In this document: piece by piece, positions 18,126-22,465 of the stretch
How positions within the stretch are numbered: the first letter of the stretch is position 1
Layout: the number at the start of each line of letters is the position of its first letter
Source of the DNA: an uncultured Rhizobiaceae group bacterium
GTDB lineage: Bacteria; Pseudomonadota; Alphaproteobacteria; Rhizobiales; Rhizobiaceae
Assembly: GCA_947501445.1 (NCBI GenBank)
Contig: CANMVS010000020.1
Location: 12,310-76,309, forward strand
Direction: 5' to 3'
DNA: 64,000 nucleotides
Translations under genes and position numbers: made by a program
The notes under the pieces: generated by a model
The model's database searches: none
Told to the model about the DNA's origin: nothing
The model's input: the letters and a program-made list of their open reading frames with translations, nothing else

Positions 18126-20450
18126 GTGATGTTTATGAGCGGTAAAAATAAAGAGCAAATTCCGACAGATGTTTATCTGTCCTTTGTTCGTTCGCTCTAT
18201 GAAAACCGAATGACCCTGCGCGCCGGAATGATTGCGCATGTTACCACCTGTGTGCTGATCTATTTCAAGGTTCAAGATCCGTTTTATCTGGTTTGCGGCG
18301 GGATAATTTTCTCATTGTGGGCGCTACGCGCGCTATCGATGCGGCGGTTTGATTCGGTTGAGTTCAGTGAGAGCGACAGCAAGCCGATCGCTCTTTGGGA
18401 AACCCGTTACATCATCGGTGCCGGACTAGTGACGCTGACGCTCGGCGTCATGACCGGTTACGCCTATCTGGTTTCAAACGATACATTTGCTGAAATTGCT
18501 GCGACATCGATAACCCTGGGAACAATGGTTTCTGTAGTTGGCCGTAATTTCGGCTCGAAAATCAATGTGGATGTCATTACGCTGGCCGCCTGCCTGCCAA
18601 TTCTGATCAGCCTGTTTCTGGTTGGTGATATTTTCAAGGCGATACTGGGCCTGTTGGTTGTGCCGCTCATCGTAACCACACGGGCAATGGCCAATGGGGT
18701 GCGCGATTTCCTTTATGACAATGTGATGAGCCATCGTGAAATTACCATTATTGCGGATCGCTTTGATACGGCGCTGAACAACATGCCGCACGGCCTTTTC
18801 ATGCTGGACCGCGACTGCCGCATTGTTGTGGCCAACAAGAAAGCCGCGCAATTGCTGTCGGTGCCAAAGCGGGAAGCATTGAGGAACCACACACTTGGAG
18901 CTGTTATGCGCTATGGTGTCGGGCGTGGCGTCATCAGTCAGGATAGGGCAACGATCATCAGGCAACAGCTTGACGCATTGGTGGATGGCCGCCAATCCCG
19001 GGCGCTGCTGTGTTTTAAACAAGACCTTTATCTGGAGTTCAGTGCAAAACGCCGCAAGGACAAGGGCGTTGTGCTGATATTTGAAGACGTGACGTCGCGT
19101 ATCCGGGCAGAGGAAAAGATCGTCCACATGGCGCGCTACGACAGCCTGACCGGTCTTTCCAATCGTGGCTATTTCTCCGAAATGATTGACGTTTGTGTCC
19201 GTGATATGAGCGAGGACGAAAAATTTGCTCTCATCGTACTGGACCTTGATGACTTCAAACATGTGAATGACACAAGCGGTCACCTGACCGGGGACCGGTT
19301 GCTATGTGCCATTTCAACCCGTTTGAGCGCCCTGGCAGATGACAACATCACATTGTCCAGGTTCGGTGGTGACGAATTCGTTCTCTTCGTGCGCAAGGTG
19401 AGAGATACTGCTCATATTGATCAATTGATGTCATCGCTGTTTGATTCCCTGCGCGGCACCTATCTGATCAATGGCAACAAGCTTTTTGTCAGCCTGAGTG
19501 CCGGCGTGGTGATCGGCTCCAAGCCAGAGTTCAAACTGGATGACCTGCAAATCAAGGCTGATCTGGCGCTTTATGAGACCAAACATCACGAGAAAAACAG
19601 CTGGACCATTTTCGCCGATGAGATGGACGAAAAATATACGCGGCGGCAAAAACTGAAATCTGCCCTGCGTGATGCTGTTCGCGAAAGATCATTTACGGTT
19701 GTTTATCAGCCGATGTTTACCGTCGACACCATTCAGGTGGCATGCTGTGAAGCGCTGTCACGCTGGTACCATCCAGATTTTGGCGCCGTATCACCGGCAA
19801 CCTATATTCCTCTGGCTGAGGAGATGGGCATTGTTGGCGAATTGACGCGACACATGCTTGAAGTTGCCTGCCGTGATTGTGCCAGCTGGTCCAATGGCGC
19901 GGCGGTTTCGGTCAATCTGTCTGCCAATGATTTGCGCAATCATAACATCATCACAATGGTGATGGATGCGCTGAAAAGCGCCGGGCTGGATGCCAGCCGC
20001 CTGCAGGTCGAAGTGACAGAGAGTGCATTTGTTCAGGATGCTGCGAAGGCCAAGGCGATCCTTGAAGACCTGCGTGCCAAAGGCGTGACAGTTGCCATCG
20101 ATGATTTTGGAACCGGCTACTCAAGCCTCAGCTACCTCAACCTCCTGCCATTGAACAAGGTCAAGATTGACCGTTCATTTGTGTCCAACATCACCAGTGA
20201 CCAGCGCACATTCAAACTGCTCAAGGGCGTTGTTCACCTGTCCAGAGAACTGGGGCTGGAAATTGTCGTCGAAGGTGTGGAAACGGAAGAGCAGCTTGAT
20301 CTGATCCGTTCAACAAATAGTGCAGACCTTATTCAGGGCTTCATCTTTGGAATGCCGATGCCAACCAGTGGTATTTCAGAACTGACGTCGAGCGGCATGT
20401 CGGGTAAACCCGTTACCTGTAAATCTCGCGGGTCTGCCCGCTCGCAGTAG
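18126..20450 (+). CDS. Membrane-bound PAS-GGDEF-EAL diguanylate cyclase/phosphodiesterase
   Basis: Hydrophobic N-terminal multi-TM domain, PAS (NNMPHGLFMLD), intact RFGGDEF with no RxxD I-site, intact EAL and DDFGTGYSSL. Confidence 0.94.
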   Translation: MMFMSGKNKEQIPTDVYLSFVRSLYENRMTLRAGMIAHVTTCVLIYFKVQDPFYLVCGGIIFSLWALRALSMRRFDSVEFSESDSKPIALWETRYIIGAGLVTLTLGVMTGYAYLVSNDTFAEIAATSITLGTMVSVVGRNFGSKINVDVITLAACLPILISLFLVGDIFKAILGLLVVPLIVTTRAMANGVRDFLYDNVMSHREITIIADRFDTALNNMPHGLFMLDRDCRIVVANKKAAQLLSVPKREALRNHTLGAVMRYGVGRGVISQDRATIIRQQLDALVDGRQSRALLCFKQDLYLEFSAKRRKDKGVVLIFEDVTSRIRAEEKIVHMARYDSLTGLSNRGYFSEMIDVCVRDMSEDEKFALIVLDLDDFKHVNDTSGHLTGDRLLCAISTRLSALADDNITLSRFGGDEFVLFVRKVRDTAHIDQLMSSLFDSLRGTYLINGNKLFVSLSAGVVIGSKPEFKLDDLQIKADLALYETKHHEKNSWTIFADEMDEKYTRRQKLKSALRDAVRERSFTVVYQPMFTVDTIQVACCEALSRWYHPDFGAVSPATYIPLAEEMGIVGELTRHMLEVACRDCASWSNGAAVSVNLSANDLRNHNIITMVMDALKSAGLDASRLQVEVTESAFVQDAAKAKAILEDLRAKGVTVAIDDFGTGYSSLSYLNLLPLNKVKIDRSFVSNITSDQRTFKLLKGVVHLSRELGLEIVVEGVETEEQLDLIRSTNSADLIQGFIFGMPMPTSGISELTSSGMSGKPVTCKSRGSARSQ

Positions 20451-20507
20451 AGCAGGTCAGAAATTCGTTGAGCCGACCCATTCGTGACCGGCACTTCATG
20501 GGCGTAA

Positions 20508-21407
20508 TTATTGCTTGAAACAATTATCTCTGTGCCAGGTGACAAATTCTGACCGCGGCTGATCTGCCTGGCGCGCAGGGATCAACAGGCTTCCGGACTT
20601 GTTGATCATTGATTGAACGGCTTCAGCATCGTTGGATTGGCGTGATACCAGTATTTTCAAGTCATCCGACAGTCCCACCATACCTCTGTCAAACATCCAA
20701 TGGGCCGTGCCCGACAAAGCCAGGCCATTGCTGATTATGTCTGGTCCATCGTATTCCACCGGGCGTATATGTGCCGCCTCCACTTCGGCTCTGCCTCTTC
20801 CATTGATCAGGCGAAGGCCGGTGATTGCGCAGCGTTCGCCGTATGCTCTGAGAACCGTCTTGCGGAAATTCCGATCACGTAGCGAACGATTTATCAATTG
20901 ATCTACACGCGTTCTGGACGAGGGGTGTGAATAGCTATCGTGTGTTTCAGCGAAACCGTCAGAATGTTCCGTTTGGCCCTCGCGCGGCAGGATATCGTCT
21001 CCACCACCAAGGCCGCGCTCAATGATCCTGGCGAAGTCAACAGGTGAGAGCGGTCGAACAGCGGCCTGTGCCCGGCCTGAAATGCGTCCCTGTTCGTTCA
21101 ACAACCCCTGTTCAACGACCGAGTTCTCGTCGCGAAATTGGACCGGATCACCAAAATCGAGATAACTGCCTCTTTCTATCACCGCCAGGTACATATCCTT
21201 GAGGCGTGGATCGGGTATGATCTCCTGCACCCGTGCGACGGCGAAGTAGCCCCTTGTGCCCTTCACCTTGCCTGGTTCGAGGTAAATGATCCAGTTGCCT
21301 TCGCACTGGCGAGCACGTTTGAGATATTGTTTTGGAAACTGATACTGCGTCGAGGGCGCGTCGTCGTATTTTGAATCCTTGCGATGTATGAATACGCCGA
21401 AAGCCAT
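20508..21407 (-). CDS. HNH endonuclease with uncharacterised N-terminal domain (putative restriction nuclease)
   Basis: C-terminal CAITG...VEAAHIRP...SNGLALSGTAHWMFDRG (HNH_2 type); ~100 aa N-terminal domain rich in aromatic residues. Confidence 0.85.
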   Translation of the reverse strand: MAFGVFIHRKDSKYDDAPSTQYQFPKQYLKRARQCEGNWIIYLEPGKVKGTRGYFAVARVQEIIPDPRLKDMYLAVIERGSYLDFGDPVQFRDENSVVEQGLLNEQGRISGRAQAAVRPLSPVDFARIIERGLGGGDDILPREGQTEHSDGFAETHDSYSHPSSRTRVDQLINRSLRDRNFRKTVLRAYGERCAITGLRLINGRGRAEVEAAHIRPVEYDGPDIISNGLALSGTAHWMFDRGMVGLSDDLKILVSRQSNDAEAVQSMINKSGSLLIPARQADQPRSEFVTWHRDNCFKQ

Positions 21408-21632
21408 TTGTAAAATCATCTTTGCTTTAGTCGATGATAATTGCAGGAGTGCAGGTACAGGATTAGTTGTTTTATTCCTGTTGCGCTACCGCTCCGTGTG
21501 CAAAATTCACCGGTGATTTGTCTGCAGGCAGCAAGCCGGGTTCCTTGTATTAAGAGAGTTTCTTACGCATCAGGCCTGGAATCCATCCATGGCATGGCTG
21601 ATTTCGAGGGGAAAACGGCGTTCACGTTAACC

Positions 21633-21647
21633 TTAACGTCAGGTTAA
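21633..21647. promoter_or_regulatory. CtrA-like box (TTAA-N7-TTAA)
   Basis: TTAA CGTCAGG TTAA upstream of the gene at 21734. Confidence 0.55.
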
Positions 21648-21696
21648 TGCCCAATCCTGTCTTATTTACCTTTACGTTTTCAATTGTTCCGATAGT

Positions 21697-21713
21697 GTTA
21701 ACGGGTGATTAAC
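21697..21713. promoter_or_regulatory. Perfect CtrA box GTTAA-N7-TTAAC
   Basis: GTTAA CGGGTGA TTAAC matches the TTAA-N7-TTAAC consensus on both strands, 20 nt upstream of the ATG. Confidence 0.75.
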
Positions 21714-21733
21714 CATGGTGTCAGGGGCGGCGC

Positions 21734-22465
21734 ATGACACAGACACAAGGCATGTCTGAATTTACACACAAACTTATTTCTATGCTGGACAGGATCGAAT
21801 ATCGCAGAATAGACAATCCGGAAGATATGGAAGACGTAGCGCGGTTGCGGCGCAAGGCGTATCAGGCGTCGGATATTTTGCCGGTGAAGGGTGATTTGCT
21901 GATCGATGATCTGGATTTTGATCCGCAGGCCTATGTATTTGGCGTTTATTATGATGAGCAATTGATCAGCACCGTGCGCATTCACCATGTGACACCGGCG
22001 CATCGGGTCAGTTCGTCGGGTACTATTTTTCCCGATGCCATCAACCCGATGCTGGATGCGGGTATGTCGCTGATTGATCCGGTTCGTCTTGCCGCAGATC
22101 CGCAGATTCTCAACGAATTGCCTGCAATTCCGTATTTGACATTGCGCATCGCAACCATGGCATCAGACTATTTTGACGTTGACAGGTGCCTGTCCCTGAT
22201 AAAGCCACAGCATGCGGCCTTCTATCGGCGTGTCTTTCGTTCAGATCAGATCGTGGCACCAACTCCCAACTGCGATGCCTACAAGATTGACTTGACCTTG
22301 CTGGCAACGCATGTGCGGTCCGTGCGGGATAAAATCTACAAGCGCTTTCCATTTTTTCAGTCGCAACCTTTTGAGCGCCGCATGATGTTTGCGCCGCCAG
22401 AAGAATTGAACCTGATGCCTTTGACCATTTTGCCAACTGCGCGGCAGTACCTCCAGGCAGCCTGA
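21734..22465 (+). CDS. FeeM-like N-acyl amino acid synthase / AHL-synthase-related acyltransferase
   Basis: ARLRRKAY, STVRIH, IDPVRLAAD and HAAFYRRVF pattern typical of the FeeM/LuxI-like GNAT fold. Activity not established. Confidence 0.7.
   Translation: MTQTQGMSEFTHKLISMLDRIEYRRIDNPEDMEDVARLRRKAYQASDILPVKGDLLIDDLDFDPQAYVFGVYYDEQLISTVRIHHVTPAHRVSSSGTIFPDAINPMLDAGMSLIDPVRLAADPQILNELPAIPYLTLRIATMASDYFDVDRCLSLIKPQHAAFYRRVFRSDQIVAPTPNCDAYKIDLTLLATHVRSVRDKIYKRFPFFQSQPFERRMMFAPPEELNLMPLTILPTARQYLQAA

Follow-up and report, generated by a model that had tools for sequence, protein, structure and literature searches.

The locus comprises two co-oriented genes, one encoding a membrane-bound PAS-GGDEF-EAL protein (P0001, subsequently designated the receptor) and the other a FeeM-family acyltransferase (P0002, the presumed synthase). 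Both lie within a 64-kb window (the whole stretch of DNA that was analyzed) from a Hoeflea genome. An HNH endonuclease gene on the opposite strand separates them, and a conserved region containing two CtrA-box-like sites precedes the synthase gene (Table 1).

Table 1. Features of the receptor-synthase locus; positions refer to the 64-kb window.
Feature	Position	Strand	Remarks
Receptor gene P0001	18126..20450	+	774 aa: 6-TM domain, PAS_7, GGDEF, EAL (ORF list, Pfam)
Six-helix membrane domain (TMN), aa 1-205	18126..18740	+	N-terminal; alignments and AF2 model
PAS domain (PAS_7), aa 206-330	18741..19115	+	Pfam 7.6e-17; PAS fold in model
GGDEF domain, aa 331-500	19116..19625	+	Pfam 2.2e-35
EAL phosphodiesterase domain, aa 505-750	19638..20375	+	Pfam 6.3e-64; catalytic motifs complete
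Intercalated HNH endonuclease gene P0003	20508..21419	-	303 aa; HNH_2 7e-09; outside module
Conserved region upstream of synthase gene	21622..21733	+	Spared by HNH insertion
Distal CtrA-box-like site, TTAA-N7-TTAAT	21633..21648	.	Within invariant GTTAACCTTAA block
Proximal CtrA-box-like site, GTTAACGGGTGATTAACCAT	21697..21716	.	TTAA-N7-TTAAC plus TTAACCAT; ends 18 nt before ATG
FeeM-family (LuxI-fold) acyltransferase gene P0002	21734..22465	+	243 aa; presumed acyl-amide signal synthase

The original prediction described P0001 as a co-oriented multi-TM PAS-GGDEF-EAL protein with both catalytic motifs intact and no periplasmic domain, and this description is borne out by Pfam, motif inspection and an AF2 model. 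The model, covering residues 1–335 (pLDDT 93.4), contains six TM helices connected by loops of at most 8 residues and no periplasmic domain. TM6 continues as a single unbroken helix (residues 169–218) that leads into the PAS fold. The GGDEF domain carries an intact RFGGDEF motif, and motif inspection detected no RxxD I-site in it. In the EAL domain, the EAL motif is intact and accompanied by DDFGTGYSS, KIDRSF, EGVET and QG. Among 98 Rhizobiaceae orthologues of the receptor, GGDEF is intact in 32 and degenerate in 66, whereas the EAL motif is intact in every one; in an order-wide sample, 45 of 59 receptors have an intact GGDEF. EAL, EVTE, DDFGTG, KIDRSF, EGVE and QG are kept in essentially all orthologues of both sets. 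Judged from these motifs, the phosphodiesterase is the conserved output of the receptor, because EAL is always intact and GGDEF is degenerate in many orthologues. The earlier designation as a cyclase/phosphodiesterase overstated this output.

The membrane domain, TMN, corresponds to no Pfam family, and no match was obtained even at E 10. Alignments identified SLF, R68, W91-E92, GRNFG (R140) and P158 as conserved. The domain is single-copy, P0001 carrying the only one in this genome. TMN is also found in GGDEF and GGDEF-EAL proteins that lack a synthase gene nearby, and therefore TMN alone is no marker of the proposed signal. With Z 12.3 over 193 aa, the 6TM domain of ImcA (8WCN) is the top structural match, followed by the TM domains of adenylyl cyclases 5 and 9 (8SL3, 6R3Q; Z 12.2 and 11.5). 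These values (Z 11.5–12.3 over about 190 residues) come with 5–8% sequence identity, and a Z of about 12 between helical bundles may result from the common arrangement alone. TMN shares with these domains a six-helix bundle with minimal loops that is placed directly upstream of a cyclase-type output. Hexahelical membrane domains of adenylyl cyclases have been reported to serve as receptors for lipids (PMC11606603, PMC12505454), and the 6TM domain of ImcA has been described as a partner-binding platform for interaction and activity, not as a ligand sensor (PMC10904736). The PAS region of P0001 yields PAS/LOV structural matches at Z 9–11; sequence similarity to the PAS domain of RpfR was not detected.

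The proposed FeeM/LuxI-fold acyltransferase was likewise recovered. P0002 matches the Pfam family FeeM (PF21926) at 3.3e-41, with 141 bits against a cut-off of 27. Its AF2 model (pLDDT 95.2) finds FeeM (2G0B) first in the PDB (E 2.7e-12, TM 0.79–0.83), followed by GNATs and the AHL synthases EsaI and BjaI. Acyl-ACP-dependent N-acylation is presumed. In contrast to this fold similarity, identity to FeeM is 19–21%, an Asp replaces the catalytic Glu, and the clade of P0002 possesses a LuxI-like D-x-x-D...R...D-x-x-R constellation plus a conserved C-terminal extension of ~50 aa, which is confidently folded in the model and absent from FeeM. Near-invariant residues of the clade are R39, D58, D61, R82, D115 and R118. 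The profile of P0002 was aligned to EsaI, FeeM and TofI; by this comparison, the active-site constellation is nearer to LuxI than to FeeM. Like LuxI enzymes (EsaI, 1KZF; TofI, 3P2F), P0002 thus combines their fold class with most of the family's invariant residues, and the logic of a diffusible acyl signal may be shared.

This raises the question whether P0002 is a LuxI-type synthase, the AHL-like product of which is read by a LuxR solo, the GGDEF-EAL neighbour being incidental. The clade retains R39, Y43 (for F), D58, D61, R82, D115 (for E) and R118, whereas in FeeM both Asp and the final Arg are missing. Moreover, EsaI is the best PDB sequence match of the profile, and relatives in Loktanella carry AHL synthase annotation. 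Six proteins encoded by the genome exceed the Autoind_bind family cut-off and one more matches weakly below it; there is a single LuxI, and five of the LuxR-type genes have no LuxI partner. However, the Autoind_synth model does not match P0002 while FeeM does so strongly, FeeM is the closest fold, and the LuxI-family Trp (W34) is missing. All Autoind_bind genes and the LuxI gene reside on other contigs, in agreement with the earlier statement that no LuxR is nearby. In none of the surveyed loci is a LuxR gene linked, whereas a GGDEF-EAL gene is present in nearly all; unlike in LuxI/LuxR systems, the linked gene encodes a one-component c-di-GMP enzyme. We regard a LuxI-type circuit as quite improbable.

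A neighbourhood survey had been set beforehand as a test that could refute the original prediction; it found the two families clustered with hardly an exception. Receptor and synthase genes lie side by side in 20/20 relatives, also at loci devoid of the Ior and Pnt flanks, and in 80/80 named Rhizobiaceae loci (drawn from Hoeflea, Shinella, Pararhizobium, Rhizobium, Ciceribacter, Mycoplana and Sinorhizobium). The same holds for 55 of the 56 clade members, from 12 families, that an even sampling of 400 genomes across the order yielded. Across these 400 genomes receptor and synthase are co-present or co-absent; the lone orphan synthase of the sample contains an in-frame stop, and the same genome lacks the receptor. 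A synthase clade member without a receptor within 6 kb is encoded on a plasmid of Rhizobium leguminosarum. More distant FeeM-family genes have no receptor-type neighbour. Linkage of the two genes is near-obligate.

As many of the surveyed genomes are related to one another, some of the adjacency reflects inherited synteny. Could gene order have been inherited without any functional meaning? Within Rhizobiaceae the series Ior or DctP, receptor, synthase and PntAB is frequently conserved, i.e. pntAB is also often kept beside the pair. Against this stand the persistence of the pair with both flanks changed, in 12 families and in three orientations (one convergent and one divergent arrangement among the 55 adjacent order-wide loci), its presence on plasmid pRt1078, where the genes are convergent and surrounded by recombinase genes, its tolerance of insertions without separation, and the co-occurrence across 400 genomes. 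Meaningless synteny is accordingly a very improbable explanation.

A further, independent argument comes from related receptors that lack a FeeM neighbour. Eleven of 14 such receptors adjoin a crotonase gene. Among solved structures, these crotonases are closest to RpfF proteins, with E 1e-49 to 4e-42 as compared to 1e-16 or weaker for ordinary crotonases. A phylogenetic tree of the receptors groups all 59 FeeM-partnered members into a single clade (SH-aLRT 99) and places the RpfF-partnered receptors outside. No differentially conserved residues were found between FeeM- and RpfF-partnered receptors. Since sister receptors adjoin RpfF-type DSF synthases, the interpretation of the pair as a signal/receptor cassette gains independent support.

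The synthase gene has its own conserved upstream region, which is 70–80% identical across Hoeflea species regardless of the genes located further upstream and belongs to no Rfam family. The proximal CtrA-box-like site is the sole strict site and contains the sole TTAACCAT of the entire window (shuffle mean 0.14). In 33/57 diverse loci a strict site is found in the 200 nt that precede the synthase gene, as opposed to 0.05% of shuffles and to none of 55 regions upstream of the receptor gene. Production is thus probably tied to CtrA.

These data also bear on the idea that the product is no signal at all, but an aminolipid, biosurfactant or antibiotic, and that the receptor monitors the state of the membrane or is merely co-regulated. 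N-acyl amino acids made by characterized FeeM-type enzymes are known as antibiotics and biosurfactants (PMC4897644), and roseobacter N-acyl alanine methyl esters have weak bioactivity and no known signaling role (PMC11580390). In addition, OlsB-type aminolipid N-acyltransferases are kin to the FeeM family, and the genome encodes two weak paralogues that match both the FeeM and the Acetyltransf_5 models. However, sister-clade receptors are paired with RpfF-type enzymes, characterized relatives of which make signals, no second, OlsA-like acyltransferase gene is found beside the pair, and the synthase promoter, with its regulator boxes, is not housekeeping-like. A non-signal product is therefore improbable in our view.

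The closest known system is RpfF/RpfR (BDSF) of Burkholderia cenocepacia and Cronobacter (PMC6361424, PMC4698668), in which the gene for the PAS-GGDEF-EAL receptor RpfR adjoins that for the synthase RpfF and the PAS domain is the fatty acid-binding part of the receptor (PMC6361424). In both systems the gene of a lipid-signal synthase, in our case a presumed one, adjoins that of a PAS-GGDEF-EAL protein, and turnover of c-di-GMP by the EAL domain is the output, here likewise presumed. Unlike RpfF, a crotonase, the synthase is a FeeM/LuxI-fold N-acyltransferase, and a six-helix membrane domain replaces the soluble FI domain of RpfR; the systems are not orthologous. Unlike FeeM, P0002 has a c-di-GMP enzyme as genomic partner, neither a fee-type biosynthetic cluster nor a PEP-CTERM/exosortase system. 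In our literature search we found no paper on a FeeM/6TM-PAS-GGDEF-EAL cassette; new here are the RpfF-type partners of sister receptors, the conserved EAL output, the structural likeness of TMN and the CtrA-box-like sites.

In rhizobia-like bacteria, the linkage suggests a candidate self-made lipid signal that would control c-di-GMP. We slightly favour, over all other readings together, that the pair is a synthase/receptor cassette resembling RpfF/RpfR, with another type of synthase and a membrane-embedded receptor. P0002 would take a fatty acyl group from acyl-ACP and attach it to an amine, such as an amino acid or a comparable compound, to yield an amphipathic acyl amide; production is probably tied to CtrA, the alphaproteobacterial cell-cycle and motility regulator. 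This lipid would partition into the producer's inner membrane, and perhaps into that of neighbouring cells, where P0001 could sense it via the six-helix domain, as originally proposed, or via the PAS domain joined to TM6. Sensing would shift EAL phosphodiesterase activity and, in Hoeflea, where GGDEF is intact, may shift c-di-GMP synthesis as well. In this scheme we infer which product is made, that the receptor binds it, where it is sensed, in which direction control runs, what sign the response has and that CtrA binds the boxes.

Control might also be reversed or two-way, the receptor governing the synthase through contact or local c-di-GMP, with the lipid as a c-di-GMP output. RpfF is bound and inhibited by the FI domain of RpfR (PMC6361424), and further precedents are the metagenomic N-acyl amino acid synthases Nas343 and Nas354, which are fusions with a PilZ-like c-di-GMP-binding domain, as well as the cAMP-activated NasP (PMC4897644). 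In Nas343/Nas354 the synthase carries the nucleotide-binding domain itself and therefore the messenger controls the synthase, whereas here a c-di-GMP-metabolizing sensor is encoded next door. The C-terminal extension of the synthase clade could serve as docking surface. However, Pfam identified no PilZ or other recognized c-di-GMP-binding domain in P0002, the receptor has an N-terminal 6-TM domain and, according to Pfam and the AF2 model, no FI-like domain, and the strict retention of the 6TM-PAS sensor architecture would be left unexplained. Thus, reversed control is unlikely, albeit the most serious competitor of the cassette model.

The HNH gene is an insertion and no part of the module, as previously suggested from its intercalated appearance: HNH is missing from the slot in 100/100 related loci and occupies it in this genome only, and homologues of P0003 sit elsewhere in the genome in 5 of 16 congeneric genomes. 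The C-terminal half of P0003 resembles restriction endonucleases of phosphorothioated DNA (NF045808, 2.4e-32, below cut-off), and PADLOC reports an HNH match (9.6e-19). In some Hoeflea species the same slot harbors an MFS transporter gene, or genes for an ICMT/PEMT-type methyltransferase and a hydrolase, activities that would be compatible with an acyl amino acid being exported or tailored.

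Open reading frames and Pfam matches agree in every point with the three-gene arrangement and the domains described in the original prediction, i.e. a gene for a putative receptor (P0001) and a co-oriented gene for a FeeM-family acyltransferase (P0002, the presumed acyl-amide signal synthase), separated by an HNH gene (encoding P0003) on the opposite strand. The pair is flanked by genes of ordinary metabolism: Pfam assigns a binding protein of the DctP type and a fused oxidoreductase of the indolepyruvate type to the 5' side and pntAA-pntAB-pntB to the region downstream.

Genes and sites discussed in the text. 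Positions refer to the window unless a contig (C) of its genome (G000) or a compared locus (L) is named.
Feature	Position	Strand	Description
Receptor gene (P0001)	18126-20450	+	774 aa; PAS_7, GGDEF and EAL after ~205 N-terminal residues without Pfam family
HNH_2 endonuclease gene (P0003)	20508-21419	-	303 aa
Proximal CtrA-box-like site	21697-21716		GTTAACGGGTGATTAACCAT; TTAA-N7-TTAAC combined with TTAACCAT
Synthase gene (P0002)	21734-22465	+	243 aa; Pfam FeeM (PF21926), E 3.3e-41
Canonical LuxR/LuxI pair	G000:C2:482851-484401		
Weak FeeM-family match	G000:C8:160-639 (L129 58-738)		
Weak FeeM-family match	G000:C36:29663-30145 (L130 6857-7552)		
RpfF-type crotonase genes beside 6TM-PAS-GGDEF-EAL genes	L218-L220, L222-L227, L229, L231		other families of the order
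Hoeflea methyltransferase-gene regions	L035:6092-7713, L036-L038		four species
Loktanella salsilacus methyltransferase-gene region	L239:4426-5513		plasmid

A failure of the two families to cluster had been named as an observation that would speak against a connection between them, and the opposite was found. In each of 20 relatives (16 congeners, other genera and one other family), a receptor orthologue is located directly upstream of the synthase gene in the same orientation. Five of these loci differ from the window on both flanks with the pair still adjacent, and we regard it as less likely that the adjacency is meaningless synteny. Among genomes with names, covering Hoeflea, Shinella, Pararhizobium, Rhizobium, Ciceribacter, Mycoplana, Sinorhizobium and Pseudorhizobium, the genes also adjoin each other at 80/80 loci. 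When 400 genomes were sampled evenly across the order Rhizobiales, 59 of them, from 12 families, matched the synthase profile, and 55 of the 56 matches scoring within the clade adjoin a gene for a protein with six transmembrane helices followed by PAS, GGDEF and EAL domains (6TM-PAS-GGDEF-EAL), which lies co-oriented upstream in 53 cases and is convergent or divergent in one case each. The one synthase gene without such a neighbor is interrupted by an in-frame stop, and no receptor was found in its genome. A further exception is a synthase-clade copy on R. leguminosarum plasmid pRlX5, which has no receptor gene within 6 kb; this plasmid carries three synthase-clade matches, and the result refers to the one copy examined. 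On Rhizobium tumorigenes plasmid pRt1078, the pair occurs together in convergent orientation between recombinase genes, the receptor being annotated as "GGDEF domain-containing phosphodiesterase" and the synthase as "hypothetical protein".

Weaker FeeM-family matches, both in the genome harboring the window and across the class, have no receptor-type neighbor. An even sample of the class gave merely two matches to the synthase profile, both weak and unpartnered, and therefore the profile detects clade members in this order alone. Bradyrhizobium including B. diazoefficiens is among the sampled groups, and its synthase is matched by more than 2,000 proteins in the databases (E <= 1e-30); the synthase clade also includes Rhizobium and Sinorhizobium and runs to thousands of metagenomic proteins.

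The HNH gene had been suspected to be intercalated, and indeed only this genome has an HNH gene in the slot between the receptor and synthase genes. In about half of the congeners fetched the gap measures merely 320-470 bp, while others carry ~2 kb of varied cargo at the same place, i.e. an MFS transporter gene or genes for a PEMT/ICMT-type methyltransferase and an alpha/beta hydrolase. Homologues of the HNH gene are present in 5/16 Hoeflea congeners, always at other loci. The C-terminal half of the protein resembles restriction endonucleases binding phosphorothioated DNA (NF045808, 2.4e-32, below cut-off; PADLOC HNH, 9.6e-19), and no family was matched by its N-terminal 170 residues. The patchy distribution fits a mobile defence-type gene, and the slot is an insertion hot spot. 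The MFS transporter genes, found on the opposite strand in Hoeflea spp. (L024, L025, L032, L111), might encode exporters of the synthase product.

Synthases of this clade are named "hypothetical" or "FeeM domain-containing" in databases. P0002 scores 141.1 bits against the FeeM HMM (cut-off 27) over profile positions 1-156 of 158, and its AlphaFold2 model is confident (pLDDT 95.2). Chains of FeeM (2G0B) occupy the top six places among PDB fold matches of this model (E 2.7e-12, TM 0.79-0.83, rmsd ~3 Å), followed by GNATs and the AHL synthases EsaI and BjaI. At the sequence level, phmmer detected no match of P0002 among PDB sequences, and profile searches reach EsaI (5e-4), FeeM (1e-3) and TofI (4e-3) weakly, a similarity that is marginal. 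Family and profile alignments revealed R39, D58, D61, R82, D115 and R118 to be near-invariant in the clade. FeeM-type enzymes produce long-chain N-acyl amino acids, with acyl-ACP as the acyl donor. The catalytic glutamate is Glu95 in FeeM and Glu103 in Nas354 (PMC4897644). In a weak profile alignment, Asp115 within "IDPxR" is aligned with the Glu of the FeeM motif "LAEVVQF" and with the Glu of EsaI and TofI; thus, the carboxylate is retained, as Asp rather than Glu. The invariant residues of the LuxI family we take to be, in EsaI numbering, R24, F28, W34, D45, D48, R68, E97 and R100. Of these, P0002 retains the counterparts R39, D58, D61, R82 and R118; the Phe is replaced by Y43 and the Glu by D115, and there is no Trp at the position of W34. 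D58, D61 and R118 are hallmarks of the LuxI family that are absent from FeeM itself, whereas the LuxI-family Trp is lacking in P0002. Based on the Pfam and fold matches and on this set of residues, P0002 is a member of the FeeM family with what appears to be a more LuxI-like active site. A C-terminal extension of ~50 residues is specific for the clade and well folded according to alignments and the model, and it retrieved nothing from Pfam, even at E 10. Fusions in longer members of the clade were not informative; HSP20 and pentapeptide matches look like gene-call artefacts.

In view of such an active site, the product could be AHL-like and be read by LuxR solos. The Autoind_synth HMM (PF00765) does not match P0002 at E 0.01 or better, and some other members of the clade match it weakly (2.5e-05, 1e-03). 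The earlier statement that no LuxR is encoded nearby holds: no LuxR-type gene is linked to the synthase gene, and the LuxR-type (Autoind_bind) genes as well as the single luxI gene are all located on other contigs. There is one canonical LuxR/LuxI pair in the genome (contig C2), and five more LuxR-type genes without LuxI partner reside on five other contigs. We consider the AHL-like reading less likely than a LuxR-independent one. Two more genes of this genome, on contigs C8 and C36, match the FeeM family weakly (31-35 bits); both also match Acetyltransf_5, an OlsB-like N-acyltransferase family, and neither has a GGDEF-EAL neighbor.

The catalytic motifs of the receptor are intact, as originally read from the sequence. 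The A-site of the GGDEF domain and its metal- and GTP-binding residues are complete in P0001 (RFGGDEF, DLDDFK, N381, D390), which has no RxxD I-site, and the EAL signature and the remaining catalytic motifs of the EAL domain (N, E-x-T-E, DDFGTG, K-x-D, E-G-V-E, Q-G) are shared by P0001 and practically all of its orthologues. Hoeflea and most of the deep lineages likewise have an intact A-site; the site is degenerate in 66/98 Rhizobiaceae orthologues and in 14/59 receptors of the order sample. Decay took at least three routes, leading to LMGDEF/LVGDQF in the Rhizobium-Shinella-Pararhizobium group and to GADEF or SADEF elsewhere. Since the EAL domain is conserved across orthologues and the GGDEF domain is degenerate in many, hydrolysis of c-di-GMP is the predicted function common to the family; cyclase activity would be optional, and is possibly retained in P0001.

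The AlphaFold2 model of residues 1-335 of P0001 (pLDDT 93.4) features six TM helices connected by loops of at most 8 residues. TM6 is one long helix running continuously into the PAS domain, and therefore no periplasmic domain exists, as had been claimed. The membrane domain found nothing in Pfam, even at E 10. When model residues 3-210 were searched against ~48,000 PDB representatives, the best structural match was the 6TM domain of ImcA, a diguanylate cyclase of Pseudomonas aeruginosa (8WCN; Z 12.3 over 193 residues, rmsd 3.4 Å), followed by the TM domains of adenylyl cyclases 5 (Z 12.2) and 9 (Z 11.5); the three matches span 189-210 residues at rmsd 2.8-5.2 Å, and Z values of this size are possibly generic for helical bundles. 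That all three are membrane anchors of nucleotide cyclases may be relevant. Membrane domains of adenylyl cyclases have been reported to be lipid receptors (PMC11606603; Rv1625c, PMC12505454), and the 6TM domain of ImcA is described as necessary for activity and for binding of a partner protein (PMC10904736). A profile of the membrane domain retrieves three architectures in the order, namely 6TM-PAS-GGDEF-EAL, 6TM-GGDEF-EAL and 6TM-GGDEF, and P0001 is the only such 6TM protein in its genome. Six-helix domains of this type form a family of membrane modules that belong to c-di-GMP enzymes and lie outside Pfam coverage. The 6TM-GGDEF proteins (~400 aa) and the PAS-less 6TM-GGDEF-EAL proteins (L232-L237, L228, L230) have no synthase gene nearby.

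Receptors lacking a FeeM-type neighbor point to another type of partner. Of 14 full-length receptors of this kind, 11 have a crotonase gene as direct neighbor. Among solved structures, this crotonase is most closely related to RpfF proteins (3M6M, 1e-49; 6DGN and 5FUS, 4e-42), ordinary crotonases following at 1e-16 or weaker; in NCBIfam it falls into PRK08788, and its score against the RpfF model is ~200 bits, which is below cut-off. No RpfF-type crotonase is encoded in the genome harboring the window, in which the best matches (1e-16) score like generic crotonases. In a maximum-likelihood tree comprising 73 receptors, with the two PAS-less forms as outgroup, 59/59 FeeM-partnered receptors and one recent receptor-only duplicate fall into a single clade (SH-aLRT 99), and the RpfF-partnered receptors are arranged as a basal grade. 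Rooting is uncertain because of long outgroup branches; in the unrooted tree, the FeeM label is confined to one side of one branch. The simplest reading of these sequence relationships would be that the synthase was replaced once, next to a receptor that was conserved. A search of the TM and PAS domains for ligand sites found no positions that are conserved differently in FeeM- and RpfF-partnered receptors.

RpfF synthesizes fatty-acid signals of the DSF family, and its Burkholderia/Cronobacter receptor RpfR is a PAS-GGDEF-EAL protein encoded beside rpfF (PMC6361424, PMC4698668). Common to both systems is a synthase gene adjoining a PAS-GGDEF-EAL gene, an arrangement kept across taxa. In the RpfF/RpfR cassette, however, the synthase is a crotonase, while here it belongs to the FeeM family and crotonase partners are seen only in sister clades. 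RpfR starts with an FI domain that binds the synthase, whereas the N-terminus of P0001 is the 6TM domain, and the fatty acid-binding PAS domain of RpfR, as represented in PDB sequences, has no sequence likeness to the PAS region of P0001. By analogy, we lean towards the view that the pair represents a synthase/receptor cassette comparable to RpfF/RpfR: the FeeM-type enzyme would make an acyl amide, the 6TM-PAS module would sense it, and sensing would modulate the phosphodiesterase activity of the EAL domain. The main rival is reverse or reciprocal control, in which the receptor or c-di-GMP governs the synthase. Precedents exist in the inhibition of RpfF by the FI domain of RpfR (PMC6361424) and in NAS-PilZ fusions (PMC4897644), and such control is compatible with the cassette reading.

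Across Hoeflea, the 110 nt preceding the synthase gene are conserved, and the insertion of the HNH gene spares them. They contain two elements that we designate CtrA-box-like on the assumption that the CtrA consensus of Caulobacter and rhizobia is TTAA-N7-TTAAC or TTAACCAT. The proximal element is the sole strict site in the 64-kb window (shuffle mean 0.14). At 33/57 diverse loci, the 200 nt upstream of the synthase gene contain a strict site, compared with 0.05% of shuffled sequences, and such sites are absent from the upstream regions of receptor genes (0/55), which served as control. We therewith weigh the alternative that the synthase makes a bulk aminolipid or surfactant and that the receptor is merely co-regulated, and consider it less likely than the cassette. 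In the nearest RpfF-partnered group, the same palindromic CtrA-like site lies between the receptor and synthase genes in 2/3 loci (L218 and L219, not L220). An Rfam search of the intergenic region returned no family, and therefore no c-di-GMP riboswitch is located there.

Literature searches, including FeeM with GGDEF and RpfR with alphaproteobacteria, found no paper on a pairing of FeeM-type and GGDEF-EAL proteins and none on a DSF-type cassette of alphaproteobacteria whose receptor is membrane-bound; N-acyl amino acid synthases and di-GMP were combined in the NAS-PilZ paper alone (PMC4897644). The proposed arrangement is of a known kind, i.e. a lipid-signal synthase with a PAS-GGDEF-EAL receptor; new are the synthase fold, the membrane-embedded receptor and the putative cell-cycle-type promoter. 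More tentatively, and as a possibility we rate below the cassette itself, the Rhizobiales might possess an undescribed LuxR-independent lipid quorum or autocrine sensing system, in which the 6TM-PAS-GGDEF-EAL protein reads a self-made lipid into c-di-GMP turnover, the synthase was swapped once from RpfF-type to FeeM/LuxI-fold, CtrA-gated synthase expression closes a loop of cell cycle, lipid and c-di-GMP, and the six-helix domain is the counterpart of the lipid-receptor domains of adenylyl cyclases. To our knowledge, c-di-GMP enzymes are numerous and their input signals mostly unknown. The cassette provides a concrete candidate for a ligand/receptor pair in bacteria that are amenable to genetics and matter for agriculture. 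If true, it would add a path by which an acyl signal acts on a second messenger independently of LuxR, assign a role to a six-helix membrane domain that has no name and connect lipid signalling with the cell-cycle circuit of CtrA.

A membrane methyltransferase of the PEMT/ICMT/DUF1295 type adjoins FeeM-family genes in two orders; the window's own genome has none of this type. In four Hoeflea species its gene is accompanied by that of an alpha/beta hydrolase. On Loktanella plasmids, exemplified by L. salsilacus, it overlaps the synthase gene by 4 bp; the partner is an AHL synthase according to RefSeq, but belongs to the FeeM family (1e-37). The Hoeflea and Loktanella methyltransferases are homologous over their full length (28% identity, E 9e-23). 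For roseobacter methyl esters of N-acyl alanine no synthase genes are known (PMC11580390), and the pair of FeeM-family and methyltransferase genes is an obvious candidate for these compounds.
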